Source: a virus. From it: a DNA stretch of 64,000 nt. The notes under the pieces are model-generated. The model worked only from the letters and a program-made list of their open reading frames with translations, did no database searches and had not been told where the DNA came from. Location of the stretch: the IMG/VR virus record IMGVR_UViG_3300037088_000232; one strand, written 5' to 3'. The position numbers and the translations under genes were made by a program. Of this stretch, positions 960 to 36,196 are shown in pieces. The number at the start of each line of letters is the position of its first letter. Position 1 is the stretch's first letter.

Positions 960-2393
960 TCTCATGTAGATAGTAGTAAACAAGTAAAATTAAGATATTA
1001 TAAGTGGCCCAATGCCACCAAATATATTACCTGTGATGACGATGACCATCAAAGAGATGGAAAGTATGTTACATGGGATGGGCGATCAGTTAAATCAGTT
1101 CCCACCAAAAATCCAAATCGTTATTCCGTCTATGATTACATAGATGAATTACCTCAGGAAGAACAGGATATTATTTTTCAATATAATGAACCTGATATAT
1201 TTTTCATCGATATTGAAAATGAAATTATAGACAAAAAACCAGCTCCTCATTTAGCTGAAAGTGCCATACAATCCATTTCCATTGTCAATAAAGATAAAGT
1301 TCTGGTAATGGGGACTCAGGAATTATCTGAAGTTATTTCCAAATCCATTGAAGAAGATATAAATAATTATTTCGCCAAATTCGGAACTATTTATCAGTTC
1401 AAATATATTCATTTCAAAAGTGAATATGAAATGTTATTGAATTTCTTTGTGAAATTTGTTCCGAGAATGCCAGTTTTAACTGGTTGGAATTTTACCGAAT
1501 ATGACTGGGTTTTTCTTGTTAATAGAGCTCGTAAACTTGGAATAGATCCGAGTGTAGCTTCAGTAACAAAATTACTGAGAGAACCTTGGGATATGGAAAA
1601 AAAGACATATTGTGAATTACCAGCTCATCGAATGGTTGTTGACTATATGGAACTATTCAAAAAATGGGATACATCCATTAGAGTTAAGGAATCAATTAGT
1701 CTGGACTTCGTATCTGATAATGTTCTTGGAGTTAAGAAAGTTAATTATGAAGGAAGTCTTAAAACCTTATATAATACAGATTATAAGAAATTCGTTTATT
1801 ATAACGCGGTTGACTCCGTACTTGTTCAAAAGATTCATGAAAAGACAAAATTGATCAATATTTTATATGGTATTTCAACTCTTTCGAGAGTAAAAATTGG
1901 GGATTCATACAGTACCTTACCTGTAACAGAGGGAATTTTAAGAAGAAAACTGAAAAAAGAGAAGAATGTTGTTCTTTGTAGATTAGACCGTTCTGAAAAT
2001 GTAGTGGATGTTGAAGGTGTTTTGGGTGGTTATGTTAAAGAACCAGTTAAAGGTATGAGCCATTGGACACCCTGTTATGACTTTAAGAGTTTGTATCCAA
2101 CCTGTATGATAATGTTCAATATCTCTGTCGATAGTTATAAAGGTATCATTTCGAGTGATAAGAAATATGCCATATTCAATAATAAGAAAATTGAAATTGA
2201 ACCAACCGACATTGTTCTATTAAATGGGGCTGTATTCCGTAATGAAATTGGAGTAGTAAATCAGGTTATGAGCCTTATCTATGACGATAGACAGAAATAT
2301 AAAAAATTCATGTTAAAAGATGGGGCTGTTCTGGATGAATTAAAAAGTGAGGAATCTAAATTGATTGCTGAATTGGTTGGGGAATTTGAGTGA
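960..2393 (+). CDS. family-B DNA polymerase (T4 gp43-like) internal fragment: 3'-5' exonuclease domain through motif A; no initiator codon, no motif B/C
   Basis: Exo I FIDIENE (1203-1220), Exo II LTGWNFTEYDWVFLVNRARKLG, Exo III YYNAVDSVLVQKI, motif A DFKSLYPTCMIMFNISV, pre-motif-B DDRQKYKK then stop; frame open from 960 but first ATG is 1308, after exo I. Confidence 0.85.
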   Translation, partial: SHVDSSKQVKLRYYKWPNATKYITCDDDDHQRDGKYVTWDGRSVKSVPTKNPNRYSVYDYIDELPQEEQDIIFQYNEPDIFFIDIENEIIDKKPAPHLAESAIQSISIVNKDKVLVMGTQELSEVISKSIEEDINNYFAKFGTIYQFKYIHFKSEYEMLLNFFVKFVPRMPVLTGWNFTEYDWVFLVNRARKLGIDPSVASVTKLLREPWDMEKKTYCELPAHRMVVDYMELFKKWDTSIRVKESISLDFVSDNVLGVKKVNYEGSLKTLYNTDYKKFVYYNAVDSVLVQKIHEKTKLINILYGISTLSRVKIGDSYSTLPVTEGILRRKLKKEKNVVLCRLDRSENVVDVEGVLGGYVKEPVKGMSHWTPCYDFKSLYPTCMIMFNISVDSYKGIISSDKKYAIFNNKKIEIEPTDIVLLNGAVFRNEIGVVNQVMSLIYDDRQKYKKFMLKDGAVLDELKSEESKLIAELVGEFE

Positions 2394-2948: not shown

Positions 2949-4268
2949 ATGTTGTATTCATTCTCAGAATTTTTGAATGAAAGATATGGTCAATTCAATG
3001 ATTCGATAAAATTTACTGATTGGTCAGAATTTAAGGAAAAGTTAAAAAATTCCATAAAAACTGGTTTTAATACTGAAGAAGAACTCGTTAATTTGATGGG
3101 AATGGACTTTAATAAATATACTCAAATCAGAGAGAATATGATTCTTAATTGGAAGGATTCAGTTAGTAAATCTTTATTACATACTGTCGCTCAGATAGGA
3201 CAAAAAATTCCAAAGGAGGGAGCTAGCATTTTTAAAGATCTCAGACAACAAACAGCTATGTTAATTGTTGCCTCTGGTGGATTAGAAAGTAGAAATGTGT
3301 TTGGTGATGTGAATTCTACAAATGGACTTAGATTTTTAAATAGATTTACGGATCTTGAAAAAATTAAAAATACAAACCCTAAAAGTACTAAATATGATTT
3401 TGATCTCCACAAGGATGTCGTGAAAAGATGGGTTGATTTTGATGGTATTCCAGCCTATACGATAACAAATAATTTATCAATTAAGAAAGTTAATAACATA
3501 GTTCAATATGTTTGGTTATATTCCTTCTATCACCATTATAAAATAAAAAAAGATAAACCGAAACTTCCAAAGAATTTATATAGGGGAATAAGGGTATTCC
3601 AAGGATTAAAAGGTAAAGAAATTGAACAATTAAGAAAAGTATCACAAGAACAAGCTAAAGGGATTGATGATAAACATACTACTTGGGTCAAAACTTTCAT
3701 TGATAATTTGATTCAATTTATCGTTGAGAAAGGAATGTCAAAAATATCGGATGGAAAATTCTTATCTTTTACCGAATCAAGGGATATAGCTGCTTATTTC
3801 GCAAATAAAGAGGGTATTATTTTGAGAGTTGATCCGACTAAGGTAAAAATAGTCACTTCACCAAAGACAGAAGAATTTTTTGGAGAAGTAGATTATGTTT
3901 CTGGTAAAAAAGAAAAAGAATATATCATAGAAATTCCAGTAAATTACAAATTTACCATAGATGATATAGAAATTGTGGATGGCGATTATTGGATCGGAGC
4001 AAATAGTCCATTATCGGTTCAATTCTTCGATCATGATGATAAAAAGGCCAACTATGAATTAGATGGAATAAGAATAGAATCTCAGTATGTTTGGAGAAGT
4101 AATACAAGTGGTGGAATCGTATTTAATAATTTAGATTCGAAAGGATATGAAAGTTGGGGAATATCGAGGCGTGAATTTAAGAAGAAATTCAATGTAGATC
4201 CTATGCCAACCGAAGAAAATTTAAATAGAATAAAAGATTTTAAGATATCTAATACTAAAAGATGGTAA
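2949..4268 (+). CDS. CTS-tagged ADP-ribosyltransferase, R-S-E type (T4 Alt-like)
   Basis: Start chosen at internal ATG giving N-terminus MLYSFSEFLNE (T4 CTS-like). Upstream part of listed ORF 2559-4268 is antisense of two minus-strand ORFs. Motifs LYRGIRV (Arg), FLSFTES (S-x-S), EKEYIIEIP (E-x-E + hydrophobics) with Alt-like spacing. Confidence 0.55.
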   Translation: MLYSFSEFLNERYGQFNDSIKFTDWSEFKEKLKNSIKTGFNTEEELVNLMGMDFNKYTQIRENMILNWKDSVSKSLLHTVAQIGQKIPKEGASIFKDLRQQTAMLIVASGGLESRNVFGDVNSTNGLRFLNRFTDLEKIKNTNPKSTKYDFDLHKDVVKRWVDFDGIPAYTITNNLSIKKVNNIVQYVWLYSFYHHYKIKKDKPKLPKNLYRGIRVFQGLKGKEIEQLRKVSQEQAKGIDDKHTTWVKTFIDNLIQFIVEKGMSKISDGKFLSFTESRDIAAYFANKEGIILRVDPTKVKIVTSPKTEEFFGEVDYVSGKKEKEYIIEIPVNYKFTIDDIEIVDGDYWIGANSPLSVQFFDHDDKKANYELDGIRIESQYVWRSNTSGGIVFNNLDSKGYESWGISRREFKKKFNVDPMPTEENLNRIKDFKISNTKRW

Positions 4269-4618
4269 ATTCTATGAAATATCTAAAAATGTTTGAAGAA
4301 TATAAAAATTTAAATCCTAATTTTTATAAATGGTTTGATGAAAGTAAAGTCGTAGATGAAAATAATCATCCATTAATTGCTTATCACGGAACAGGTGAAT
4401 ATTATAAATCAACTATTGATAAAATATTTGATTGTAGTAAAGGGTGTTGGTTTACTGAATCATTAAAGGTTGCTAAAGTTTTTACACACAATAAATTAAA
4501 TCCGAAAATTTTAAAAGTTTATTTGAAAATAGAAAATCCAAAGATTTATGAAACTTGGTTTGATTATATGAATGATGTTAAGGAATGGAAGAGTGAGATA
4601 ATTAATATAAAGAATTAG
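4262..4618 (+). CDS. small ART-fold-like protein (H-G-T / WFTES motifs), possibly truncated
   Basis: IAYHGTGEYY ... CWFTESLKVA; 118 aa; stop/start overlap with upstream gene. Confidence 0.35.
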   Translation: MVNSMKYLKMFEEYKNLNPNFYKWFDESKVVDENNHPLIAYHGTGEYYKSTIDKIFDCSKGCWFTESLKVAKVFTHNKLNPKILKVYLKIENPKIYETWFDYMNDVKEWKSEIINIKN

Positions 4619-4703
4619 AAAAGATTTTATTATGTTTTACCCGAATTATATTAAGAATATTAAAAATGATGGAAGTTGGGATATAGATGATTCTAATATT
4701 TAT

Positions 4704-5438
4704 TCATAACAAATGATAATAATCCATATTATAAAATTCTTCATCATTTTCAATTCCTATGAAATTTCTTCCTGTATTCTTAGCTGCTATACAGGTTGTT
4801 CCAATACCACAAGTGTTATCCAGTACTAATTCTCCGGGATTCGTAAAGGTCAATATTAACCATTCACACAATTTTACTGGTTTTTGGGTTCTATGTACAG
4901 GTGGCCAAGGTTTTTCGAAGTTTAAAACACTTTTCGGATATTTTTGTGTAGTTCCTTTTCTTATATCTGGAATTTTCGAATCAAAATAACCATAATTTTG
5001 ATTTTTTCCTTCTTTGAAAGAAAAAGCGTTACCTTTTGAATGCTGAGGTGTCCCCTCTGTAAATTGTGGATGGTAAGTTGGTTGTTTTTTATAGAAAATC
5101 AAAATTTGCTCATGGTTTCTAAGTATTTGTTTTTTTGCATTTAAAAATCCAGTGACCCTTTCTCCTTTTTTCCATATCAAATCATAACGATACATTTTCT
5201 CATTAGATAAAGCAAGTTTGTGAGCGAACATTCCCTGAGCGAATAAAGCAATACATCCATTCGGTTTTATAATTCGATTGTAGTTCTTCCAGAGTAATTC
5301 AAATGGGATCATAATATCTTTCTTGTTTCTTGTGACTCCGTATGGTAAATCAGCAAGAATCATATCAACAATATGAGTATCAATATCAGGCATTAGATGT
5401 AAACAATTATCGAAATATATTTTATTTATATCAATCAT
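4704..5438 (-). CDS. DNA N6-adenine/N4-cytosine methyltransferase, beta class
   Basis: Motif IV DLPYG precedes motif I DNTCGIGTT (FxGxG) near C-terminus; 244 aa. Confidence 0.8.
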   Translation of the reverse strand: MIDINKIYFDNCLHLMPDIDTHIVDMILADLPYGVTRNKKDIMIPFELLWKNYNRIIKPNGCIALFAQGMFAHKLALSNEKMYRYDLIWKKGERVTGFLNAKKQILRNHEQILIFYKKQPTYHPQFTEGTPQHSKGNAFSFKEGKNQNYGYFDSKIPDIRKGTTQKYPKSVLNFEKPWPPVHRTQKPVKLCEWLILTFTNPGELVLDNTCGIGTTCIAAKNTGRNFIGIENDEEFYNMDYYHLL

Positions 5439-5829
5439 TTAACAACGATTTTAATTTTTGAGATCTAATGAAATTTTGTATTTTTTCTGATATTTCATGA
5501 CCCGAATAACAATGAGATACGAATCCATCTGGTCTATTCATAAAGTCAGTTGTAATTATATAACAAGAATTATACATTTCAGTACCAGCTGCACTTTTTG
5601 TTCCAATTCCGATTATTGTTTCCCCGAATTTTGGTTTTCTATAATTAAATTTCCATGAATCCCAATTCATTTCTTCACAATATTTTTTATTTTCTTGAGA
5701 TAAAAATTCCAAAATTCCATCAATATCTTTTTCATTGGTTTCAAATAAATTACACCAAATATGATTTTTAATATCTGGTTCAACCGATTTCCCAATCAAA
5801 AATTTATCTAAAAAATTCATATCAATCAT
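5431..5829 (-). CDS. member of tandem paralog family (C-terminal KL..IL.D motif)
   Basis: N-term MIDMNFLDKFLIGKSVE, C-term SQKLKSLLND; overlaps neighbours by 8 nt. Confidence 0.5.
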   Translation of the reverse strand: MIDMNFLDKFLIGKSVEPDIKNHIWCNLFETNEKDIDGILEFLSQENKKYCEEMNWDSWKFNYRKPKFGETIIGIGTKSAAGTEMYNSCYIITTDFMNRPDGFVSHCYSGHEISEKIQNFIRSQKLKSLLND

Positions 5830-6193
5830 TTAATATTTTTTCTAATTTTTTGTATCTAATATGATTTTGTAGTTTTGCAACTAAATCAATTCCACGAAAA
5901 ACACGAGTTGCTAATCCACTAACATTAATATTTTCCAGATTAAACTCAGTTGTAAATAATTCACAAGAATGTTCGTGCCATAGTCTAATTCCTAAAATCG
6001 TTTCTCCGAATAGTGGTTTATAAGGTGGTGGGATATAGTCAAAATCCATTTCACGAGAATATCTTTGATTCTCTTCATTTAAAAATTCTAAGGTTTCATC
6101 ATCAATCTCAATAATATCATTTCTAATATTATTAACATCCTGAATCATAGATTCAGATTTTCCGATCAAAAATTTATCCAGGAAATCCATCAT
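5822..6193 (-). CDS. member of tandem paralog family
   Basis: N-term MMDFLDKFLIGKSE, C-term RYKKLEKILND; paralog of 5431-5829. Confidence 0.5.
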   Translation of the reverse strand: MMDFLDKFLIGKSESMIQDVNNIRNDIIEIDDETLEFLNEENQRYSREMDFDYIPPPYKPLFGETILGIRLWHEHSCELFTTEFNLENINVSGLATRVFRGIDLVAKLQNHIRYKKLEKILND

Positions 6194-6509
6194 TCAAAAT
6201 ATCATTGAGTTTTTCAGATCTTATGTAATTTATTAATCTGGCTTCTAATATATCTGTGTCATTTCCAAAAAACACTTTAAATGTATTATTTTGTCTTGAA
6301 TTATATAAATCCACGAATTCTGATAAATAATTATAATTATATTCGGATTTTCCAGTTATAATAGTTATTTTATTCTTGGATATTCCTTTCTTAAATAAAT
6401 TATCTAAAAAACTTAAACCTGTCTCAATAGATTCGGATTTTCTTTTATCCAATTCAAAATCATGATATTCTTTCCAGAAATTATCCCAATTAAATTCATT
6501 TTCATTCAT
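6174..6509 (-). CDS. member of tandem paralog family
   Basis: N-term NEFNWDNFW, C-term RSEKLNDILNDGFPG. Confidence 0.5.
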   Translation of the reverse strand: MNENEFNWDNFWKEYHDFELDKRKSESIETGLSFLDNLFKKGISKNKITIITGKSEYNYNYLSEFVDLYNSRQNNTFKVFFGNDTDILEARLINYIRSEKLNDILNDGFPG

Positions 6510-6777
6510 CTAAAATAGTTTTAAGTGTATTTGATCTGTCTTTGTTTTTTGTTATTGCTTCTGACATAACAAAATAATCATCTAAATCCCAATCAAATAT
6601 TGTAAAATTATTTTTTATTAAATTTGAACTTAAAAGATCAGGACGATTTTTTCCTTTTATACAATCATCCCATAAGTCCCAATTTAGATTATACATATTC
6701 TTATAATATTCTTTATTTATTCGTCTTAGTCTATGTATACTATTTATCAAATTGGGTTTTTTTATCATCCTTTTCAT
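6502..6777 (-). CDS. member of tandem paralog family
   Basis: NWDLWDD motif, C-term DRSNTLKTILDE. Confidence 0.45.
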   Translation of the reverse strand: MKRMIKKPNLINSIHRLRRINKEYYKNMYNLNWDLWDDCIKGKNRPDLLSSNLIKNNFTIFDWDLDDYFVMSEAITKNKDRSNTLKTILDE

Positions 6778-6937
6778 CTAAAATGATTTGAAGTTTATCT
6801 GACCTATCTTCATTGATAATTCTTGATACTATTGAATCAGTAAAAGTATTAATGTCATTTTTTTCTATTAACTGAGGATTGTGATAAGCATCGTTAAGTT
6901 CTTTTTCGATCTCTGTCCAAAATTCTTTTGAAATCAT
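6740..6937 (-). CDS. member of tandem paralog family (short)
   Basis: C-term DRSDKLQIILDE; 65 aa. Confidence 0.4.
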   Translation of the reverse strand: MISKEFWTEIEKELNDAYHNPQLIEKNDINTFTDSIVSRIINEDRSDKLQIILDEKDDKKTQFDK

Positions 6938-7518
6938 CTGACTCTTTCTAACTTATCTTTATCAAATATTGCTTTTCTTCCAAAAACAGCCAATCCGAGT
7001 TGATATGTTTCAAGTCCATCATCAATGTCATGCCATCTGTTCATAAATTCAGATTTTGGTATATATCCGACATTAAATAAAGACGGATCACTAATTAATA
7101 AAAGTTTATCTGTGTATCCAATTACAGCCACAAAATGTCCATCTCCCCAAGTTTCTTTATATTTTCTTTTGAATTTAAAATCAGTTCCCCAAGCTTGTAT
7201 CAAAACAATTACTGGAATGTTCTTATCCACATATTTAATCAGATCATCAATTGTCATATCTTGTTGTAATTCAGTCTTTAGATCATGATAATGAAAAAAT
7301 TTCACTATGTTTTTTACAAGTGTTCCTTCTTCTTCGTTAGTTTTCAAAATTTCAACTAAATCAGATTCACGAAAATTTTCACCATAAAATTCCATTGTTC
7401 TTTCTACTATATCACAACCACAAGTATATGAATAGGCTTGTCTTGTTATTGGAAAATCAATAATTTTGATATTTTCATCATCTTCGAAATCCAATTCATC
7501 AATGTATAAATTTGTCAT
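6934..7518 (-). CDS. papain-like cysteine peptidase, C39-like
   Basis: Cys motif YSYTCGCDIVERTMEFYG, His motif GHFVAVIGY, then ISDPS; 194 aa. Confidence 0.55.
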   Translation of the reverse strand: MTNLYIDELDFEDDENIKIIDFPITRQAYSYTCGCDIVERTMEFYGENFRESDLVEILKTNEEEGTLVKNIVKFFHYHDLKTELQQDMTIDDLIKYVDKNIPVIVLIQAWGTDFKFKRKYKETWGDGHFVAVIGYTDKLLLISDPSLFNVGYIPKSEFMNRWHDIDDGLETYQLGLAVFGRKAIFDKDKLERVR

Positions 7519-7525
7519 AATGTGA

Positions 7526-8410
7526 TTATATATTAAATATTTTCTTGAATGGTTTTAAATTTCCATCTGGATTGTGTTCTTTATATGAGTTATGATCATC
7601 ATAGATAGCGAATACTATCTTATGAAAAACCCCTTTATATTCAGTATCTAATAATTCTTTAAAGATTGAAGCTATCTGTTCGGGTGGATTTCCATAAGCA
7701 CCACAACCAAAAGCGGAAAGAACTAAATCTCTATGTCCATTCTCATGAGCGAATTGAAAAATCCTTCTTATTTTTTGTTTGGTTTTGGAGAAGTCATTTT
7801 CATTCATTCTTCTATTCTTCAATTCTGGTCTTTTTATTGCAGGTACAGATATAAAAGCACATTTGAATGGATGGGAGAGTAAATAATATCCATTTTTTTC
7901 AGAACCACGAAAAACGGTTATATCTTTTGAATAGATTGCACCATAATCACCCAATGGATATTTGTATTTAGAATTTTGTTCTATTCCATACTGATGAGCA
8001 TAATCAACATATTGATAAAGAGATTTAAATAAATTGGTTCTTCTGAATAAATTTTCTTCCTGTGCCGATGAACCATTTATTACACCACCACCGGGATTCT
8101 TATAACTGGCCATATTTAAAACTATCGGATTTTCCATCGTTCTTGCTACATCCAAACAATCAGCATCCATGACCAATATTTCAGTTTTAAAGTCATTTAT
8201 CCCCGTTGGGTCATAAATTGGGCCATTTTCAGTAAATAAAGAGTTCTGGCACACTTTCGAGTTGTCAATGATAACTTCTCCATCCGAGAAGTATTTTCCA
8301 TTCTTAACGATTTTAATCGTGTTTTCCCAAACATCAATCAAAAGTTCTTTTCTTCTGTTAAGATTTGAAGTTTTATAGGTTTGTGCCCATTTTATTGCAT
8401 CCCATTCCAT
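7526..8410 (-). CDS. bacterial-type poly(ADP-ribose) glycohydrolase (macrodomain, DUF2263/TIGR02452 family)
   Basis: PARG signature NPGGGVINGSSAQEENLFRR (GGG-x6-8-QEE) and LVLSAFGCGAYGNPPEQIA. Confidence 0.75.
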   Translation of the reverse strand: MEWDAIKWAQTYKTSNLNRRKELLIDVWENTIKIVKNGKYFSDGEVIIDNSKVCQNSLFTENGPIYDPTGINDFKTEILVMDADCLDVARTMENPIVLNMASYKNPGGGVINGSSAQEENLFRRTNLFKSLYQYVDYAHQYGIEQNSKYKYPLGDYGAIYSKDITVFRGSEKNGYYLLSHPFKCAFISVPAIKRPELKNRRMNENDFSKTKQKIRRIFQFAHENGHRDLVLSAFGCGAYGNPPEQIASIFKELLDTEYKGVFHKIVFAIYDDHNSYKEHNPDGNLKPFKKIFNI

Positions 8411-8428: not shown

Positions 8429-8902
8429 TTAAATAATTATTTCATCTCTTATTAATATGGATATAGCGTCTTTCAGAGCTTTACCATCGAATCCTTTAGT
8501 CTGATCTATTTCCACCATATTGTCTATTTGTTCAACTAACATATCAATATGATGGTCATCTAAGATAACATAATTCGTAACATATTTTAGTTCATTTTCA
8601 CCATCGAATGAATTAAACTTATTTAACCATTCTTTAATTTCTAATCCTTTGGGAACTTTAATGGTTTCATCTTCTTTAATCGAAAAATTCGGAGTGATTC
8701 CAAGTATTTCACCTTTAACACCATTATCATATAAAATTTTTGTAACATCGTGTTTTCTTTTCCAATCTGAGGTTACAACTATTTTAGCCCCCGTTTTACG
8801 AATAAGTTCATTGAGATTGTCAATATTTCTCATATTGAATCCCTTGGCACTGGCTGGAATTAACACACCATCAAAATCCAAAAATATAATTTTGTATGTC
8901 AT
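8429..8902 (-). CDS. small HAD-superfamily phosphatase (resembles HAD domain of RNA-repair 'Swiss-army-knife' proteins)
   Basis: Motif I FLDFDGVL at N-terminus, 157 aa, VILDDHH motif III/IV-like. Confidence 0.6.
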   Translation of the reverse strand: MTYKIIFLDFDGVLIPASAKGFNMRNIDNLNELIRKTGAKIVVTSDWKRKHDVTKILYDNGVKGEILGITPNFSIKEDETIKVPKGLEIKEWLNKFNSFDGENELKYVTNYVILDDHHIDMLVEQIDNMVEIDQTKGFDGKALKDAISILIRDEIII

Positions 8903-8904
8903 TC

Positions 8905-9282
8905 TTAAAGAAAGGGAATATCATCATGAGAATTATCCTCAATCGATTCAATAGCCCTTATTCTTTTTTCTTCATCTTCAAGATTCTTTAAATCCTTTTC
9001 TAACCCAATAAGATCATGAACAGATCTTGACAGTGAACTAGCTTTTTTATGAAGTTCATAATCTTTTATGACTTGATCACTTGTACCATCTTTCCAACCC
9101 AATCCATACTTTATACCCCATTCCAAATCTTCTTTTCTCCAACCATTCACATCTTGAAGTGAAAGACTTGTAGATATTCCAATAGTAGTACCTACATCAA
9201 AAAGTGTAGATTCTTCTTTCAACATACTTAAATGATGTTGTAAAATCTCAATAAGTTCTTTAATTGTTATTTCTTTAGCCAT
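8905..9282 (-). CDS. hypothetical protein
   Basis: 125-aa ORF between HAD and ASCH genes with stop/start overlaps. Confidence 0.45.
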   Translation of the reverse strand: MAKEITIKELIEILQHHLSMLKEESTLFDVGTTIGISTSLSLQDVNGWRKEDLEWGIKYGLGWKDGTSDQVIKDYELHKKASSLSRSVHDLIGLEKDLKNLEDEEKRIRAIESIEDNSHDDIPFL

Positions 9283-9740
9283 TCTCTTAGATCCTTTTCA
9301 TAATTTATATACTCAATTTTGTCAAAAGTTGTCTTATCCAATTTAGACCAACCTTGTTTTCCCCTGAATGGAAATGGTTTTATTTCTCTAACATCCTCAT
9401 AAACATGGCACCACAAATCAGGATTGTATAAAGCGAAACAATTATCTTCATCTGTTTTTTGCATTGGTCTACAATCAACTAATCTTCCAATGGCTATAGC
9501 CAATCCACAAAGATCATCTACACAACCAAGATCACAATGTAAAGTGTCAAATATTCTATACAATTGATACTGTCCACAAATATCATTTAATTCCTTTAAT
9601 GAATATGACTTCTTAGAAGCACATATCAATACTTCACCCCTGTATTTAGTTTTCCATACTCTGGTTTCAATTTTCCCACATAACATCAGACTAGCAAATG
9701 GTTGTTTCCAACTTAGTGCTAAAATATCATTTTCTGTCAT
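9267..9740 (-). CDS. ASCH-domain (PUA-like) protein
   Basis: LSWKQPFASLMLCGKIETRVW matches ASCH GxKxxExR core. Confidence 0.55.
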   Translation of the reverse strand: MTENDILALSWKQPFASLMLCGKIETRVWKTKYRGEVLICASKKSYSLKELNDICGQYQLYRIFDTLHCDLGCVDDLCGLAIAIGRLVDCRPMQKTDEDNCFALYNPDLWCHVYEDVREIKPFPFRGKQGWSKLDKTTFDKIEYINYEKDLREWLKK

Positions 9741-11647: not shown

Positions 11648-12415
11648 TTAACAAGCGTAACAGTATGTACAATGATGCTTACAGGTTTTAAATGTTCCTA
11701 TATCTCCACTTTGGATACATCCACATTCAGTTCTTTGATTTTTATCCTTTGTACTCGTTATCCATCTTTGTTTTCCACATATTCGTTCAATTAATTCAGG
11801 ATCTACACATTTATTATGTTCTATACCATCCAAATTAATTGATTCGGCACAGGTGGCTAATTTCAATCCCCAATCTTTATTGAATTCTATTAATTGTTTA
11901 GAAATTCTAATTTTAACATCATCAGGAACTTCTTTGAATTTATTACCCAATTTTTTATAGGGATCAATATAACTAAATACAAGTTTTTCTGTATAATTAT
12001 GTATTTCATTCCCAATTTTTTCAATTCTTCTTAAAAGTTTTTCTTCTGTTATTTTATCAGAAATAATAATCGGGTCAAATCTCCATATTACACACTCCCT
12101 ACCTATTTTATCTGATAATTCCTTGAAAGTTTCAATTCTTTCTAATATCGGTGGGACTTCTAATTCATATTCTGGATATCCATTTAATGTAAATTGGAAA
12201 TAATATTTGAATGGTAAAGAATCCAGATATTTCATAAAAGGTCTTGGATTCTTCGACCAGAATACAGCCAATTTCACTTTTTCGAAAGATATGGTATATG
12301 TTGACCAAGGATTTACCATATTAACATACCCCTTTTTTATTTTCTCCATGAACCAATCGCCACGGAATGCGGGAATATCTTCTCTACGACTTACTGAAAT
12401 TATATGAGGCTCCAT
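11648..12415 (-). CDS. DUF1848-like protein with C-terminal Cys cluster (putative metal/Fe-S binding)
   Basis: N-term HIISVSRREDIPAF resembles DUF1848 start; C-term CGCIQSGD...CKHHCTYCYAC. Confidence 0.4.
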   Translation of the reverse strand: MEPHIISVSRREDIPAFRGDWFMEKIKKGYVNMVNPWSTYTISFEKVKLAVFWSKNPRPFMKYLDSLPFKYYFQFTLNGYPEYELEVPPILERIETFKELSDKIGRECVIWRFDPIIISDKITEEKLLRRIEKIGNEIHNYTEKLVFSYIDPYKKLGNKFKEVPDDVKIRISKQLIEFNKDWGLKLATCAESINLDGIEHNKCVDPELIERICGKQRWITSTKDKNQRTECGCIQSGDIGTFKTCKHHCTYCYAC

Positions 12416-24762: not shown

Positions 24763-24788
24763 TATTTTTTTGTTTCATCTTTTTGTAA

Positions 24789-24796
24789 TACCTTTG
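24789..24796 (+). promoter_or_regulatory. Bacteroidota-type -7 promoter element TAnnTTTG
   Basis: TACCTTTG followed by TAG, 17 nt upstream of 24813 ATG. Confidence 0.35.
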
Positions 24797-24812
24797 TAGA
24801 AAATTACAAAGA

Positions 24813-25616
24813 ATGAAACCTTGTGATATCTGTCTGGAAAAAGTTTGTAAAGGGCCGAATGGTCCGGGAACTTGTAATTGTGAAGAATGTTCCGTAAAAG
24901 ATACTTGTCCAAGGAAACTCCACGCTACCGTCAGAATTACTTTAAAATGTACTCAATCCTGTGGACATTGTTGTTATGAATGTTCTCCCAAGATGGATAC
25001 CCACATGACCATAAAAATGGCCAAAAAAGTTTCCGCTTTTCTTAAAAACAACGAAGTACAAATGGTTAATCTCATGGGTGGTGAAATTTTTTGTAATCCA
25101 CATTGGAAAAAAATTCTGGATTTAATTATTCCCTCAGTTCCTTTGGTTCGTATTGTATCCAATGGAGATTGGATTGAAGGATGTCCTGAATTCGCTGAAT
25201 ATCTCACCAAATTCAAAAACTGTTATGTCAGTATCTCAAAAGATGAATGGCATAACATGAAAAATGTTGATAAAGCTCTCAAAGTCCTCAAAGAAAATAA
25301 TATCCTTTTCAATACTCCTAAACACGAAGAAAAAGAAGAAAATTTAGTTCCTGTTGGTAGAGCTGAATTAAGTGGATTCGGTTTTTATGGAACTTTCGGA
25401 TGTTATTGTCATAATCCAGAAAAACAATATTCGTTTCTCATTGACGAAAAAGGTGATATTTTCAAATGTGGATTTGGTATATGGAATTACGATTCAATAG
25501 ATACTTATGTTGATGGTGGATTCACAACAAGATTTAAAGAATTCAACAAAGTTTTTTACGGAGTATTTATTCCCAGCTGTAGTTCTTGTATCAGATCTTG
25601 TAATAATTTCAAATAA
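24813..25616 (+). CDS. radical SAM enzyme with Cys-rich N- and C-termini
   Basis: CTQSCGHC = CxxxCxxC, LMGGEIF (GGE SAM motif); extra Cys clusters. Confidence 0.65.
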   Translation: MKPCDICLEKVCKGPNGPGTCNCEECSVKDTCPRKLHATVRITLKCTQSCGHCCYECSPKMDTHMTIKMAKKVSAFLKNNEVQMVNLMGGEIFCNPHWKKILDLIIPSVPLVRIVSNGDWIEGCPEFAEYLTKFKNCYVSISKDEWHNMKNVDKALKVLKENNILFNTPKHEEKEENLVPVGRAELSGFGFYGTFGCYCHNPEKQYSFLIDEKGDIFKCGFGIWNYDSIDTYVDGGFTTRFKEFNKVFYGVFIPSCSSCIRSCNNFK

Positions 25617-25729: not shown

Positions 25730-28057
25730 TTATTTTGATGTAGTTGGTGGAAGAGTTTTCTGATTTGGTGTCTGATTTGGTGTCATTAGTTTAGTAAGAA
25801 CACCTGACAGTAATCCACTATCACCGTTTGTTACCAATGTATCAGGTACTATTTTCACACCTCCTTGTGCTATTTTTTCAGCGACTTGAACTTGAATAAC
25901 TCCTTCTTGACCAATAGCTGATTTTTGTTTTTCGTAACCTTCTGCAGTGGCTCCCATCTTTGCCTCGATGGCTACCCCCTCAGCTTTACCAATGGCCTCA
26001 ATACCAGCGGCCTCTCCTTCTTTCTTCAATTTTGTAGATTGACCTTCTCCTTCAGCGAGTTTAATTGTCTTTAATTTGACATTCTCGGCCACTTTTACAT
26101 CAATTTCAGAAGCAACCAATTCTGGTTGTTTATTAGCTTCGGCTGTAGTTTTCTCCATAGAGATACGAGATTGTTGAGCTTTCTGTTGTTCAAAGTACAT
26201 TGCCTGTTGCTGTTGAGCGATAATTCTTTCAGTCTGAGTTTTCATCAAATCCTCTGGTAACTGAATTTGACAAATAAGAACACTTACTAATTCGACATGG
26301 TATTTCACCAATTCCTGACGAGCTCTATCTTCAGCCTTCTGTTGTTCTTCATGACGATTTTGCATGAATGCCATGGCTGATGTTGAAGATGCTTGATTAC
26401 GGAATGACGAGTCAATCATCGGGTGGATGACATGCTCGACTAAGTTCTGGATTGAACCAATTTTTGCTACCATATAAGGTGCTTGGTCAGGACGAATCCT
26501 GATAACAACCTTAACGGATACACTGATTTCAAAACCATCATGAGATACAACTTTCAATGGATCAAAACGAGTTTCTTTCGAATCATCCCAATCAATTGTA
26601 ATGTTAGTGGTATCAACCACATATGCGATATAAGCTCTACGGTTCAAGTAATAAATCCCCGGACCAGCTACTTCCTGTTGAATACCTCTGAATCCCTTAG
26701 GAACTACATATCTTTCGATTCCGATATCCAATCTTTTTTCGATTCCACCTGCTGTAACACTATCGTCTTGAACTCCTTCGGCACTTGGTGTAATAATTGG
26801 GGAAGATTCCTTTTCTTTCTCAGCTCTTGCAACATCATCAACCATTTCTTTTACCTGAGGTGGTTCATCTCCGACATTTGATACAAGAACGGCCACTTGA
26901 CCACGCTCAATTACAGCGACATCATCAAGTTCGACACTAAACATCAACGGATTGATATAGTATGTACCCGGCTTCAACACATCAAATTGAGGTCCACGTT
27001 GACCACCATTCTTTAAGAATGTTGTTAAATCTTGGAAATTATTATGTCCTTCAATTGGTTTAGCTACATATTCAGTTTCAGGTAAAGGTTTACCATCACG
27101 AGCGACAACGATACCAATTTTTTTATCTGGAATAACAATAGTTTCTTTAATTTCGACTTTGAATAAAGCCACATTGATACGATATTTACCCGGAAGTAAT
27201 ATGGTAGTCTGAGGCCCTTTTTCTCCACCGTTATCTAAGAAAGTTTTTCCATCTTCAAAATTCTTTTGACCATCAATATATTTGGCTAATAAACGACCAT
27301 CACTGATAGGTTTACCGTCTTGAGCGGTTACGATACCAATCTGTCCTTTTTCAATAACTGTGATTGGAACTGGTGTTACTTTAAATAAAAGAGTATTGAT
27401 ACGATAGTTACCCGGAGGTAAAATTTGAATTTGAGGACCTTTCTCACCACCATTCTTTAAAAAAGAGGCGGCATCTTGAAATAAATCACAATCAACTACT
27501 TTACCAAAAATACGACCAGATGGTACTGGTTGTCCATCAATAGATTCTACTATACCAATTTGATTCTCAGCAATAACTGTAACTGGAACTGTCTTTACAT
27601 TAAAAAGTAAAGGATTAATACGATAGAGTCCCGGTGGTATGATAGGAATTTGAGGCCCTTTTTCACCACCATTGGTTAAGAATAATTCTCCGTCTTGAAA
27701 CAAATTACATTCAATTGGTTTAGCGAAAATTTTCCCAGATGGAACAGGATCTCCATCCGATGAAACAACTAAACCGATTTCATTTGTACCAATAACTGTG
27801 AAATCCTGTTTCTTTCTTTTATAAATGAAAGGGAATAAGAAGTACAAACCCGGACCCATTGCCCTTGCTTGAACTCCAATTTGTTTACTCATGGCAAAAA
27901 CTCTGTTTTTCGGCATCTGTGCACCCATCCAGCGTCTTTCCAATACTTTAATTTCTTTACCACCCACAATAAGGATTGAACTCCAAATCAGGACAATAAG
28001 AAAGATGACAGCTATAGAAATACCTGCTATCATCAAATAAAATAAAACTGTAGCCAT
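25730..28057 (-). CDS. flotillin/SPFH (band-7) family membrane protein with four internal ~77-aa repeats and C-terminal A/E/G-rich flotillin tail
   Basis: N-terminal TM; repeats IGIV..DG.P.P.G...AK.I....FQD...FL.NGGEKGPQ...PG.YRIN.LLF (approx nt 26857-27787); AEGEGQSTKLKKEGEAAGIEAIGKAEG tail. Confidence 0.7.
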   Translation of the reverse strand: MATVLFYLMIAGISIAVIFLIVLIWSSILIVGGKEIKVLERRWMGAQMPKNRVFAMSKQIGVQARAMGPGLYFLFPFIYKRKKQDFTVIGTNEIGLVVSSDGDPVPSGKIFAKPIECNLFQDGELFLTNGGEKGPQIPIIPPGLYRINPLLFNVKTVPVTVIAENQIGIVESIDGQPVPSGRIFGKVVDCDLFQDAASFLKNGGEKGPQIQILPPGNYRINTLLFKVTPVPITVIEKGQIGIVTAQDGKPISDGRLLAKYIDGQKNFEDGKTFLDNGGEKGPQTTILLPGKYRINVALFKVEIKETIVIPDKKIGIVVARDGKPLPETEYVAKPIEGHNNFQDLTTFLKNGGQRGPQFDVLKPGTYYINPLMFSVELDDVAVIERGQVAVLVSNVGDEPPQVKEMVDDVARAEKEKESSPIITPSAEGVQDDSVTAGGIEKRLDIGIERYVVPKGFRGIQQEVAGPGIYYLNRRAYIAYVVDTTNITIDWDDSKETRFDPLKVVSHDGFEISVSVKVVIRIRPDQAPYMVAKIGSIQNLVEHVIHPMIDSSFRNQASSTSAMAFMQNRHEEQQKAEDRARQELVKYHVELVSVLICQIQLPEDLMKTQTERIIAQQQQAMYFEQQKAQQSRISMEKTTAEANKQPELVASEIDVKVAENVKLKTIKLAEGEGQSTKLKKEGEAAGIEAIGKAEGVAIEAKMGATAEGYEKQKSAIGQEGVIQVQVAEKIAQGGVKIVPDTLVTNGDSGLLSGVLTKLMTPNQTPNQKTLPPTTSK

Positions 28058-28191
28058 TAATTTGTGTATTAAAATTGCCTACTCTTTTCACCATTTTCGG
28101 CTTACTGGTTGAATATTATATCATCGGAAGCCGAAAAAAGTTTTAAAAATTGTTTTAATATATACATAATAGAAAATAATATATCAATATT

Positions 28192-32639: not shown

Positions 32640-33098
32640 TCAATATCCCCCGTTCCAATTAATTTTTGGAAAGTTATCTGGTTCATTTAATATCTTTTTT
32701 AGTGTTCTTTTTCTGTTTTCATTGATATTCTGTTCATCTGAATCCTCACCTAAACACGGCCTTATATATTCTAAAAATTTAATTAGATTATTGATATCAT
32801 CGATTGTTTCTAATCTAATTTGTAATTTTACTTTTCTGAAACGACATCCTAAAAATTTACTCGATGTTTCTACTTCACCGATATTATCCGATTGTTCATG
32901 TAAAATTCTATCATTTTTCTTATCATATCCTCGAATTATAATTTTACTCTGGGGATCTAATTTATCACTCAGAAAAGAATCCAAAATTTTATCTTTGAAT
33001 GGTATATCCCTTGAAAGAAAGTTATTGATAAATTGATTTAATTCTAATTCTTCTTCACTTTCGGTTGTGGTTATATTTTTCCCCGATTTTCGTATCAT
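32640..33098 (-). CDS. hypothetical protein
   Basis: Start placed at internal Met (MIRKSGKN) to avoid a 70-nt overlap. Confidence 0.35.
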   Translation of the reverse strand: MIRKSGKNITTTESEEELELNQFINNFLSRDIPFKDKILDSFLSDKLDPQSKIIIRGYDKKNDRILHEQSDNIGEVETSSKFLGCRFRKVKLQIRLETIDDINNLIKFLEYIRPCLGEDSDEQNINENRKRTLKKILNEPDNFPKINWNGGY

Positions 33099-33478
33099 TT
33101 TTTCAATTCCTTCAATTTTTTCTGAGCTTTTTTCAATTGGTTTTGGGCTTGTTCTATTTCCCATTCTCTATGACTTATCTCGGCATTGATTATATCCTGT
33201 TTCTTTTTTTCAATGGCCTTTTGAACCCTTTCCTTTTCTTCCAGAATGATACCATTGGTACAATGTAATTCTATCAGTTCTGGAATACCATAATCAGGAT
33301 AATTATTCGACCACCAAGTAACTTGACTTCTTGCAGGGCCTATCCTTGGATATATCTTAGCTTTCTTTATATCATCTACCCAACTATCTCCACTACCACT
33401 ATATCCCTTAGTCCTCAGCCATTTTCCGTCTTTACTTCTGACGGCATAGAATTTTAAATCAACTTCGATGTTTTTCAT
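33095..33478 (-). CDS. hypothetical protein with K/E-rich C-terminal coiled coil
   Basis: 127-aa ORF. Confidence 0.4.
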   Translation of the reverse strand: MKNIEVDLKFYAVRSKDGKWLRTKGYSGSGDSWVDDIKKAKIYPRIGPARSQVTWWSNNYPDYGIPELIELHCTNGIILEEKERVQKAIEKKKQDIINAEISHREWEIEQAQNQLKKAQKKLKELKK

Positions 33479-33891
33479 AATAATTTCAAATGTCCTGTTA
33501 TTTCATCTATTGTTTCTGGATAAGATGGCCCTATTGCAATACAAGTATTCGTTGGAACACCATCAAATTCGGTCAGACCAGAGTCCGTAATCAAAGAACA
33601 AGGTAATCCTTTATCTTTGGATTTTTGATATAAATCAAGTAATTCTGATTCACTATCACAACTAACAACAACTTTTGTGAATATACCATTCAACCATTGA
33701 TCCCAAGGACCATCCCCTCTATATCGAAAGATAATCATCTTCCATTCACCAGTTTCCAAATTTATTCTGTTTTCTTTTTCACATAAATCCAAAAAGGCTT
33801 TAAAAGAGGCATGAGCGCCCTGAGATACCATTTTACCTTTTCTCATATTGAGGTCTTTCCTCATAACAATTACTTGTTTCGGTTTTTCCAT
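33475..33891 (-). CDS. pth2: peptidyl-tRNA hydrolase, PTH2 family
   Basis: DLNMRKGKMVSQGAHAS ... LITDSGLTEF..IAIGP....IDEITGHLKLL matches PTH2 along full length. Confidence 0.8.
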   Translation of the reverse strand: MEKPKQVIVMRKDLNMRKGKMVSQGAHASFKAFLDLCEKENRINLETGEWKMIIFRYRGDGPWDQWLNGIFTKVVVSCDSESELLDLYQKSKDKGLPCSLITDSGLTEFDGVPTNTCIAIGPSYPETIDEITGHLKLL

Positions 33892-33947: not shown

Positions 33948-34265
33948 TTATCTACAAAACCATTGATCTTTCGGAATATCATTATATGAATTAAATTCAT
34001 ATTCAACACCACCTATTTTTATTGTTACATTATATGGAATGAATTTAAAACAGATTGATTTTTCACCCATATCAATAATATCTTGATAGTTAATATCTGG
34101 AATGATATACTTAGTAAAAGATTGACCTTCAATTTGTTTATGTAAATATTTATCATCAATAGTAAATGAATTATCGAAAAGAAGTACACCGACCCCCTTT
34201 ACATTGTTATTTTTTTCGATAATCTTTAAATGTTCTTCTCGTGTTTGATTTATTTGTGTTGTCAT
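33948..34265 (-). CDS. hypothetical protein
   Basis: 105-aa ORF. Confidence 0.35.
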   Translation of the reverse strand: MTTQINQTREEHLKIIEKNNNVKGVGVLLFDNSFTIDDKYLHKQIEGQSFTKYIIPDINYQDIIDMGEKSICFKFIPYNVTIKIGGVEYEFNSYNDIPKDQWFCR

Positions 34266-34486
34266 AATTCTTCTAAAATTTCTTTTAATTTTTTAAATCT
34301 TTCATCATTAATAAACTGTTCGTTCCATAACTCAACCATTTGGTCACAAGTTTCAGAGTTCATTACTATAAAATTGGCTTTACCTCCAGTTTGTCTACCA
34401 ATGAGAAAAGTATTCTTCTCAGCATATTGATCTTTATATATTGGAATATTAAATACACCAGTTAATTCATCGCATTTTTCAATCAT
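34262..34486 (-). CDS. hypothetical small protein
   Basis: 74-aa ORF, ATGA overlap. Confidence 0.35.
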   Translation of the reverse strand: MIEKCDELTGVFNIPIYKDQYAEKNTFLIGRQTGGKANFIVMNSETCDQMVELWNEQFINDERFKKLKEILEEL

Positions 34487-34697
34487 CTTTTTCTGTATCT
34501 AATATTTCATCAAGTCTTTCTGACCTTTTATGATTAACGAAATCTTCAATCTTCATTTCTTTTCCATCACTACCAGTTACACCACCATAACCAATACTAC
34601 CACTGCATGTACCGTCAGGATGAACTATTTTTTCTTCTCTGATTCGAGTTATTTCTTCCCATTCTTTTTCAATCGAATTTTCTATTTCTTCTTTCAT
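34479..34697 (-). CDS. hypothetical small protein
   Basis: 72-aa ORF. Confidence 0.3.
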   Translation of the reverse strand: MKEEIENSIEKEWEEITRIREEKIVHPDGTCSGSIGYGGVTGSDGKEMKIEDFVNHKRSERLDEILDTEKDD

Positions 34698-34706
34698 ATT
34701 TCTATT

Positions 34707-35795
34707 TTATTTTTTCATTCTCCATTTATCATTCAATAATGAACTTTCATAAAAATCAGCATCCACTGTAAATCCTGTTAACCATTTAATAACTCTGACA
34801 TCCGCAGTTGTCAATTTTTCCTTGATAACTAAAATATTTCCTGAAATTCTTGAACAATCATCCGATGGAAATTCACATATACCTTTTTTCTTTAAGATAC
34901 ATTCATGATTAGTTTTCATCTTAATTTCAAAATCAAAAGGAATCAAATGTTTAATATCAGTTGGTTGATTATTTTTAAAACCAAAACATTTATCTTTCAT
35001 CACACATTTTTCACAATTCATTTCAGTGGGACGATAATAATGAGCATTGTAATCTCTTTCTAAATCGTGTGTATAAGATATTAAACAGGATGTTTTTCTA
35101 AATATTGGAATATTGTATAAATCTGATAACTCATCAAATATCTGTTGAACATCATTAGAAATTGATTTCTTATGTCCAAATTTAAATCCGGGATATGGTT
35201 TCAAATCTATATTGCTTTCTTCCCAATATTTTACTACCTCAGGAATACCTTGTAATCCAGAATAACCAATTGCAATATTAAAATCTTTAGCAATACTGAA
35301 TACATTTTTAATAGTTTCAAATGAATCGTTTATTCCATAACAAATTGGCCTAAATTCAATGGATTTATGATATTTATATTTTCTAAAATTTGCTACTCGT
35401 AAATTATATGATAATCGTTTGTTTGAATATCTATCAAACTCATGATCAATACCAAAAGTTGAAAAAGCCAAATGTAAATCAAGATTGATATCATTCGGTA
35501 AATCGAAATCTAATAATTCACCCTTTGTAATTATAACAACCGGACCTTTATGATTTTCTTTTTCTAATTTATGTAAATACTTTAGTGTTTTGTCTCTTTG
35601 AATCAATGGATCACCATAAAATAAATTAATTGAAATGGGTAGATTGATGAAATTTTTATTGATTTTGGATGGTAGACATGAATATTCGAATTCAGTATTA
35701 TTCTGGGATACTCTACAAAAGGCACAACCCAAACAATTCTTAGTATTTCGACCTATACAACAAAACGATTTAGATATGTATAATTCATCTATCAT
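34707..35795 (-). CDS. Cys-rich protein, possible Fe-S/radical-SAM-related enzyme (non-canonical motif)
   Basis: N-term SFCCIGRNTKNCLGCAFC; further CEKCVMKDKC and CEFPSDDC clusters. Confidence 0.3.
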   Translation of the reverse strand: MIDELYISKSFCCIGRNTKNCLGCAFCRVSQNNTEFEYSCLPSKINKNFINLPISINLFYGDPLIQRDKTLKYLHKLEKENHKGPVVIITKGELLDFDLPNDINLDLHLAFSTFGIDHEFDRYSNKRLSYNLRVANFRKYKYHKSIEFRPICYGINDSFETIKNVFSIAKDFNIAIGYSGLQGIPEVVKYWEESNIDLKPYPGFKFGHKKSISNDVQQIFDELSDLYNIPIFRKTSCLISYTHDLERDYNAHYYRPTEMNCEKCVMKDKCFGFKNNQPTDIKHLIPFDFEIKMKTNHECILKKKGICEFPSDDCSRISGNILVIKEKLTTADVRVIKWLTGFTVDADFYESSLLNDKWRMKK

Positions 35796-36001
35796 AAATC
35801 TAAATTATCTGGAAATTCAAAATTATATTGGTATCCATCTTTCAATTCTTTATCATCCAAGATATTATCTAACTTTTCTTTTCTTTCAAAATTTAAAAGT
35901 GATTCTTCATCGGTGAATGTAATCCCTTTATAAAATACCATAAAAAACTTCTTTTTCTTCGTGAAAAGAAATGAATCGTTTATTTTATCTTCTTCTGTCA
36001 T
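35792..36001 (-). CDS. small protein with RKEKLDNILDD motif
   Basis: 69 aa; motif shared with the 5431-6937 array. Confidence 0.35.
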   Translation of the reverse strand: MTEEDKINDSFLFTKKKKFFMVFYKGITFTDEESLLNFERKEKLDNILDDKELKDGYQYNFEFPDNLDL

Positions 36002-36082
36002 GTTATATCATATTCTGGAACTTTTGTAATTCTAACAATAGAATTATTTACCCAAATACCTTTATTTTCTGGGAGTTCTTTA

Positions 36083-36196
36083 TTATCTTAAAATATTATC
36101 TAATTTTTCTTTTCTTGTATAATTTTGAAATTCTTCTTCGTTATCAAAAAATTTTCCATCATAAAGAATTGAAATATTTGATTCCCTTTCACTCAT
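36083..36196 (-). CDS. 37-aa mini-ORF, partial duplicate of 35792-36001 (ends RKEKLDNILR)
   Basis: Translated by hand; 27-nt near-identical DNA repeat (35861-35888 vs 36091-36117). Confidence 0.3.
   Translation of the reverse strand: MSERESNISILYDGKFFDNEEEFQNYTRKEKLDNILR

Follow-up and report, generated by a model that had tools for sequence, protein, structure and literature searches.

A C-terminal motif common to otherwise dissimilar small proteins in two gene clusters of a probable huge phage of Bacteroidota

Short terminal peptides used for targeting or docking are found in the cargo-loading peptides of encapsulins, in the capsid-targeting sequence of T4 internal proteins and in docking motifs of the clamp- or SSB-tail type. 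In double-glycine systems, the leaders have hydrophobic residues at positions -4 and -7. Among the expansions described in large phages is that of the zinc ribbons of Bacillus phage G, with about 35 copies (PMC7824862). The locus considered here belongs to IMGVR_UViG_3300037088_000232, a viral stretch of 64,000 nt that is called the window in what follows and to which the coordinates refer throughout. It contains an array of five small minus-strand genes, named A to E, placed between the gene of a C39-type cysteine peptidase and that of a beta-class DNA methyltransferase (MTase). The initial annotation took the five genes as diverged paralogs, and saw in the adjacent peptidase a hint of proteolytic processing of their products. 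Our results indicate that they belong to a new, fast-changing gene family, which is neither five copies of one gene nor a set of evident protease substrates.

The feature common to the family is a unit of about 20 residues with the consensus phi-phi-N-x2-R-x2-[KRT]-L-x2-[IL]-L-[NDE]-[DE], derived from 13 copies, ten of them in open reading frames (ORFs) of the window and three in the related contig L074. The residues N, R, L and L were invariant in 13/13 copies. In the six-frame translation of the window, the regular expression R..[KT]L..[IL]L[ND][DE] gave 7 matches, each of them in minus-strand translation with a stop 0-19 residues further on, against an expectation of 0.02 matches (100 shuffles), while a degenerate DNA motif gave 4 matches against 0.00 in dinucleotide-preserving shuffles. 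A hidden Markov model (HMM) built from 7 copies retrieved ten ORFs at E ≤ 1e-3, and in each of them the motif was C-terminal, in frame and on the coding strand. The ten ORFs fall in two clusters, one at 5.4-6.9 kb (genes A to E) and the other at 32.6-36.2 kb. The C-terminal pattern [R/K]..KL..IL.[D/E] pointed out in the initial annotation is genuine, being far above chance, and its recurrence at 35792-36196 is real (ORFs F69 and G37); three further copies were found in J174, I74 and H72. The family can be defined by a motif that lies near the C-terminus, in frame, occurs above chance and is conserved as amino acids.

Concerning the rest of the proteins, A and B were 41% identical over their full length (Smith-Waterman z = 33). 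When a profile of A, B and P0091, a protein of L074, was aligned with C, only the last 28 columns matched (hhalign probability 86%, E 5e-6), and D and E had only the motif in common with the other array genes. After the sequences were cut from the motif Arg onward, A and B were the sole pair left with significant similarity, and a phmmer comparison with all 900 six-frame ORFs of the window returned the pairs A-B and F69-G37 only. Thus, the idea of five paralogs holds for A and B, which are true full-length paralogs, and for about 30 C-terminal residues of C, but not for D and E, which share the motif only; alignment and profile comparison gave significance to the A-B pair, but not to the other bodies once the motif was removed. 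By similarity over the bodies, the five array genes do not form a single paralogous family. The N-terminal recurrences pointed out earlier were found as well: FLDKFLIGKS in A and B, and NWD.FW in C, D and the middle of A. Because only A-B and F69-G37 are similar over their bodies, the family would be defined by a common C-terminal helix attached to bodies that are unrelated or have diverged past recognition.

The motif is conserved as a peptide. At the first invariant Leu, the ten window copies have TTA in 5 cases and CTC, CTT or CTA in the other 5; the invariant Arg codons are AGA or AGG, and the Ile codons are ATT, ATA or ATC. Since the variation at the invariant positions is all synonymous, selection acts on the motif peptide and not on the DNA. 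The final motif codons, AAT GAT or GAT GAA, contain an ATG, which is the start of the next gene in 5/10 window copies (A, B, C, D, and also E if the 91-aa form of D is taken) and in both C-terminal motif copies of L074, with ATGATTGA and ATGAATGA as recurrent stop-start overlaps. This start-codon role looks secondary to the peptide, because the motif ATG of F69 opens an ORF of only 4 codons, no minus-strand ORF of at least 35 aa begins within the motif of J174, and the final motif codons of H72 contain no ATG.

The search for relatives of the family gave few results. A search among 5.8 billion proteins, with the A/B profile and protein C as queries, recovered nothing but A, B and C; when 1.84 billion cluster representatives were searched exhaustively by profile, one further protein appeared, P0091 (124 aa, E 2.6e-17). 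GenBank phages gave no match by blastn or tblastn, and no confirmed relatives were obtained with the C39 protein in IMG/VR or with the A/B family in JGI metagenome contigs. None of the motif proteins reached a curated cut-off or a convincing E-value in Pfam, PHROGs or NCBIfam, and neither C nor a profile of 13 motif sequences gave a convincing match in the PDB. The degenerate DNA pattern of the motif had 60 single matches in IMG/VR, many of them out of frame or within long ORFs; since at no locus were several strong copies found together, they were treated as chance. In view of these searches, the family appears to have no homologues beyond this phage lineage.

P0091 is encoded in L074, a 1.6-kb contig with a C39 fragment 80% identical and an MTase 52% identical to those of the window. 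Just two genes lie there between C39 and MTase, one for a 135-aa protein with two motifs, internal (...NENRSKKLKDILDE...) and terminal (...NKNRSKILKNILDD, followed by the stop), and the other for the B-like P0091, which ends in IRSKRLKMILND. The first module of the 135-aa protein was 36% identical to D over 75 residues (E 6e-4). In a second relative (ENA ERZ1426829; C39 68% identical), where ORFs of 72 and 83 aa are also neighbours, the order is PARG, a 66-aa ORF, C39 and MTase, and the C39 gene overlaps the MTase start with nothing in between. The comparison with related phages produced, then, two genes with three motif copies in L074, but no array in the second relative; because of this difference, the array appears to be a variable insertion or expansion in a conserved PARG-C39-MTase backbone. 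Concerning its origin, the first 15 nt of gene A (ATGATTGATATGAAT) and of the MTase gene were identical at 14/15 positions, and the preceding ~40 nt were also similar, which suggests that a tandem duplication took place here, the duplicated unit reaching a few codons into the next gene. In the contigs from several samples that were compared, and examined for the ratio of nonsynonymous to synonymous polymorphism (pN/pS), the array was identical; the differences within the sampled population were confined to the convergent intergenic region near 4.6 kb.

With moderate confidence, these results are interpreted as a lineage-restricted, diversifying accessory family with the architecture of a variable head plus a constant docking helix; the helix, its docking role and the biological role are what we infer. 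Each small protein would consist of a variable N-terminal body and, at its C-terminus, a constant amphipathic alpha-helix of about 20 residues, which would most likely be a common element for protein-protein docking or oligomerisation, either bundling family members into a complex or linking different heads to one partner. The products would be made by stop-start coupling in one unit ending with the MTase, and the array would grow or shrink by tandem duplication, fusion or fission within the PARG-C39-MTase backbone. AlphaFold2 placed the motif in a long C-terminal helix, at residues 110-131 of A and 85-107 of C, and the invariant N, R, L, I/L and L are spaced i, i+3, i+7, i+10 and i+11, which corresponds to one helical face. 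It seems reasonable to interpret that the products cooperate via the helix, since one-face conservation, stop-start coupling and the two-module fusion of L074 fit this; that fusion and the coupling are what is expected for interacting subunits. A role in host takeover or anti-defence would be the likeliest category because the region is rich in enzymes of counter-defence type (MTase, PARG, ART-PolyVal, HAD_SAK_2 and PTH2), and such neighbour genes are typical of phage-host conflict (PMC5512222, PMC7824862).

Several points weigh against this interpretation. The AlphaFold2 models had a mean predicted local distance difference test score (pLDDT) of only 50 (A) and 47 (C), and, although the conservation moment peaks at 90-110 degrees, its permutation P of 0.07 is only suggestive of helical periodicity. 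The anti-defence role is proposed from the gene neighbourhood. Besides, the two flanks outside the window (~4.5 kb and ~8.4 kb) gave no further motif copies.

A more specific version of the docking-helix interpretation, which we regard as unlikely, is that the helix is a dedicated addressing tag that brings changeable small effector heads to one machine. The target could be the capsid, from which the heads would be injected, the neighbouring C39 peptidase, which would process them, or a hub protein of the host. If true, the tag would represent a modular "plug-in" system for the counter-defence effectors of huge phages, with its last codons doubling as the next start. More generally, most genes of huge phages are small and have no known relatives, so that there are few handles for sorting them; a constant helix that can be searched as a motif on ten or more otherwise unrelated small proteins provides a testable grouping, and the identification of its partner would reveal at once how a whole group of dark-matter genes acts. 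For the present the finding is descriptive. The locus also illustrates how such a set may evolve, by tandem duplication, fusion or fission, and insertion at a conserved peptidase-methyltransferase junction.

Of the two targets within the phage, the C39 peptidase can be considered on its own merits. Its gene matches Peptidase_C39_2 (PF13529; E 7e-12, 46.5 bits, cut-off 24) and C39 (PF03412; E 9e-10, 39 bits, cut-off 22), and residues Gln27, Cys33, His128 and Asp144, which 28 homologues share without exception, correspond in the alignment to the active site of the ComA peptidase domain; the enzyme is predicted to be catalytically intact. Even so, it is quite unlikely that the small proteins are its substrates, with the helix as a recognition element like the amphipathic helix of double-glycine leaders. 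The enzyme would cut after [ND][DE]; C, E, F, H and J would thereby lose their C-terminal tails, and two-module proteins, such as that of 135 aa in L074, would be separated into their parts. This would agree with the alignment of the intact peptidase with that of a double-glycine system, the location of its gene directly upstream of the array in two phages, the hydrophobic residues at positions -4 and -7 relative to the putative cut, as in double-glycine leaders, the position of the motif copies, which are terminal or trailed by short unconserved tails, and the fusion of two modules in one relative. However, the putative site lacks GG, GA and GS, and the motif lies at the C-terminus, whereas a leader is N-terminal; in A-E, no N-terminal leader of ~15-30 aa ending in GG, GA or GS was found. 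The second cluster (32.6-36.2 kb) adjoins a radical-SAM-like gene and a PTH2 peptidyl-tRNA hydrolase gene, with no peptidase beside it, one relative has C39 next to MTase without the array, and at other C39 loci 55-66% identical (a phage-like locus at 66%, and bacteria) there were no motif ORFs. The bacterial homologues are stand-alone proteins, some of them lipoproteins, in unrelated contexts: the closest non-phage ones are single chromosomal genes of Bacteroidota, ~55-60% identical and with unrelated neighbourhoods, and lipoprotein signal peptides are present in three of the four Bacteroidota homologues that were aligned. In the comparison with P0007, P0009 and P0024, the phage C39 was 52-57% identical to homologues with such signals. 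The phage copies have no signal, and its loss may point to a Bacteroidota host and to a cytoplasmic or virion role. Neither of the two marks of double-glycine precursors, the N-terminal leader and the conserved association with the peptidase, was found. The earlier hint of C39 processing is thus unsupported by the comparative data, given the lack of a GG-type site, the second cluster without peptidase and the relative without array; what speaks for it is the adjacency in two phages. Concerning the capsid, it is improbable that the helix is a targeting tag that loads cargo into it, or into another phage structure, for delivery to the host. That unrelated bodies carry one common short terminal peptide would be in line with loading, as would the ART-PolyVal domains of the neighbourhood, typical of predicted injected effectors (PMC5512222), but there are no structural genes nearby, one copy of the motif is internal (in the 135-aa protein of L074), and the motif has no link to any capsid protein.

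Other explanations do without a docking role for the helix. It is very unlikely that the motif is a nucleic-acid cassette at gene boundaries, which would either serve translation (re)initiation of the following gene or be a site of recombination by which small genes are shuffled. The use of motif codons as the next start in half of the copies of the window and both C-terminal ones of L074 would be explained in this way, and genes C, D and E do have a 58-nt direct repeat at their 3' ends. Nevertheless, conservation does not follow the nucleotides: at the invariant residues only synonymous changes occur, among them TTA/CTN ones in the first codon position, every motif copy is in frame and on the coding strand, the ATGs of F69 and J174 open no gene and H72 has none, and the repeats, with only 62-72% identity, are too diverged for efficient homologous recombination. 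A conserved C-terminus, a variable N-terminus and a stop that overlaps a start make up the usual signature of arrest peptides; yet the least probable of the readings considered is that the C-terminal peptides arrest the nascent chain, or regulate it otherwise, tuning termination and reinitiation at the overlapping stop-starts, as the distance from motif to stop ranges over 0-19 residues, the proteins reach 174 aa with full coding bias, and one motif copy is internal. It is also scarcely probable that the ORFs are decaying fragments, e.g. of a DnaB/RecA-type ATPase, or non-functional relics of duplication. The N-terminal half of C matched the DnaB-like helicase phrog_19 (E 3.5e-4, 48 residues only), C matched the Pfam KaiC ATPase (E 0.045, 13.5 bits, below the cut-off of 26.6), and A and B hold a shortened version, FLIGKS. 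However, the Walker A motif GxxxxGK[ST] is absent in C, where KITIITGKS has no Gly at -5, and C had no helicase match in the PDB; the assignment of gene C as a P-loop ATPase of DnaB/RecA/KaiC type was rejected on its Walker A and its family scores. Against decay are also the intact coding bias, the purifying selection on the motif peptide, the retention of the motif in L074 despite an MTase identity of only 52%, and the sameness of the array in the compared contigs from several samples.

The layout of the locus, summarized in Table 1, was in accordance with the initial annotation, as every ORF was found again at its coordinates on the minus strand. The genes of the block share one orientation and are densely packed, with stop-start overlaps; their transcription order, from 8410 to 4704, is PARG, C39, E, D, C, B, A and MTase. 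The overlaps from C39/E to A/MTase are, in the same order, of 4, 38, 8, 20, 8 and 8 nt; those noticed earlier between neighbouring small ORFs (8-38 nt) are the 8, 20, 8 and 38 nt ones. The start of E overlaps the C39 stop (ATGA), the start of B sits within the final motif codons of C, and the stop of A overlaps the MTase start as ATGATTGA; the MTase is translationally coupled to gene A. The same overlap ATGATTGA joins the stop of H72 and the start of I74. For gene D, the JGI callers use a later ATG (64 aa), with which the 38-nt overlap would vanish; the long form of 91 aa seems preferable, because the protein of the relative aligns from residue 23 of D, 5' of the later ATG.

Table 1. Motif-bearing ORFs of the window, genes flanking the array, and ORFs of contig L061 with similar strings
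Feature	Coordinates	Strand	Length (aa)	C-terminal end	Motif coordinates	Remarks
MTase	4704-5438	minus				beta-class N6/N4 DNA methyltransferase; last gene of the block
A	5431-5829	minus	132	...IRSQKLKSLLND, stop	5434-5466	full-length paralog of B
B	5822-6193	minus	123	...IRYKKLEKILND, stop	5825-5857	paralog of A; nearest P0091 of related phage
C	6174-6509	minus	111	motif, GFPG, stop	6189-6221	last ~30 aa common with A/B
D	6502-6777	minus	91 (64 from ATG at 6696)	...DRSNTLKTILDE, stop	6505-6537	
E	6740-6937	minus	65	...DRSDKLQIILDE, 10-aa tail	6773-6805	
C39 peptidase	6934-7518	minus				stand-alone cysteine peptidase, without signal peptide
PARG	7526-8410	minus				microbial type, upstream of C39; synteny kept in relatives
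J174	32640-33164	minus	174	...NRKRTLKKILNE, 13-aa tail	32682-32714	
I74	34262-34486	minus	74	...ERFKKLKEILEEL, stop	~34268-34300	motif variant
H72	34479-34697	minus	72	...KRSERLDEILDTEKDD, stop	~34494-34526	
F69	35792-36001	minus	69	...ERKEKLDNILDD, 19-aa tail	35852-35884	paralog of G37
G37	36083-36196	minus	37	...TRKEKLDNILR, stop	~36086-36115	
L061 ORFs	9238-9504, 2366-2824, 992-1105 (in L061)			RK[EQ]KL...-type strings		weak scores

The identities proposed earlier for the flanking genes were correct by their Pfam scores: the MTase matched N6_N4_Mtase (PF01555; E 1e-29, 104 bits, cut-off 26.7) and the PARG gene matched PARG_cat_microb (E 1.5e-26), in addition to the C39 matches given above. 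The MTase has DLPY in its N-terminal part (residues 30-33) and a GIG motif in its C-terminal part (~210-215), the order of the beta class as read from the sequence. The small ORFs are gene-like, as had been proposed. The codon-usage score of the ten motif ORFs was +0.25 to +0.64 bits/codon in frame (+0.25 to +0.45 for A-E) and negative in the other five frames, and the MTase, C39 and PARG genes had the same pattern. The standard genetic code fits the window. Recoding of stop codons was considered and rejected: with TAG recoded, the ORFs of at least 100 codons went from 98 to 114 and the longest one did not change, while TGA or TAA recoding inflated the ORF count as predicted by chance, and TGA closes motif ORFs exactly at the start of the next gene. 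In the block, no sigma-70 promoter or terminator signal stood above the shuffled background, and no RNA family was found in the array region. The net charge was negative in 8/10 motif proteins.

Strings that resemble the family were observed elsewhere. A short ORF at 24775-24924 (minus strand) ends in ...SFFVIFYKGITKR, like the N-terminal part of F69 (FFMVFYKGITFTD), but terminates ahead of the motif and could be a shortened member of the family (phmmer E 1e-3). The plus-strand ORFs 21-365 and 513-920 contain the internal strings KIEKILNDLQKYEKDFWDNI and KIILKKLNDL...NDFW, which recall the motif followed by NWD.FW, and gave no score with the motif HMM. In L061 (IMGVR_UViG_3300036715_004481), an unrelated AT-rich viral contig with 23% G+C, the strings of three ORFs listed in Table 1 lie near the C-terminus and may be due to compositional chance.

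Concerning the source of the DNA, the window is nearly identical to a 597-kb JGI metagenome contig (3300036884 Ga0334813_000005), and the same proteins occur on contigs of up to 736 kb. It has 28% G+C, mostly orphan genes, a family-B DNA polymerase and several ART-PolyVal proteins, with no tRNA or ribosomal genes and no capsid or terminase gene within it. The source is probably a huge phage of Bacteroidota, a host proposed because the nearest non-phage relatives of the C39 gene are in that group. The family-B polymerase may be split or truncated: the ORF at 1308-2393 (plus strand) has 361 aa and comprises the exonuclease domain and the first third of the polymerase domain, whereas the gene according to JGI encodes 491 aa (856-2331), as in a related contig. 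At least two ART-PolyVal ADP-ribosyltransferase genes are present in the window (4262-4618, plus strand; 59399-60955, minus strand) and three more lie within 8 kb of its right end (L079 11504-15422). Together with PARG, they suggest a heavy investment in ADP-ribosylation conflict. The region 4613-4690, compared with L001 and L003, shows two indels (~62 and ~66 nt) between otherwise identical strains, and the first one alters the C-terminus of the ART-PolyVal ORF 4262-4618, which has 118 aa here and 143-169 aa elsewhere. Among the orphan genes, other minus-strand genes encode a HAD_SAK_2 phosphatase domain, known from RNA-repair proteins (8429-8902), a DUF1848 protein (11648-12415) and the PTH2 peptidyl-tRNA hydrolase (33475-33891). 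The acidic tip DDDIPF of bacterial SSB recruits partner proteins, and a similar end, ...HDDIPFL, was observed in a 125-aa ORF without Pfam match (8905-9282, minus strand). Finally, a match to the Rfam DUF805b RNA (RF02914; 44 bits, above the gathering score) is located at 28076-28110 (minus strand), just upstream of a 775-aa SPFH/Band 7 ORF (25730-28057).

The locus can be compared with four kinds of known systems. As in double-glycine systems of the ComA, LahT or PCAT type, an intact C39 gene stands beside genes of small proteins with a putative amphipathic helix; unlike in them, the helix is C-terminal and ends in N/D-D/E instead of G-G, there is no ABC transporter, and the association does not hold across relatives or for the second cluster. 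A resemblance to half- and full-size HsdS can be seen in a variable part joined to a conserved helix, doubled in the L074 polypeptide, beside a DNA methyltransferase gene, but it is an analogy only: Methylase_S was not among the Pfam matches, the bodies are far smaller than target-recognition domains, and the MTase is of beta class (PF01555) and not a type I HsdM. The motif sequence matches none of the terminal targeting or docking peptides mentioned at the beginning, and one of its copies is internal; what it has in common with them is a constant short peptide on otherwise unrelated proteins, with conservation on one helical face. In comparison with the lineage-specific expansions of large phages, the shared element here is a C-terminal helix of about 20 residues and not a whole domain, and most bodies are not detectably homologous; like those expansions, these are small, co-oriented, packed genes of one lineage, with a varying copy number and an origin at least partly by tandem duplication (A/B and F/G37).

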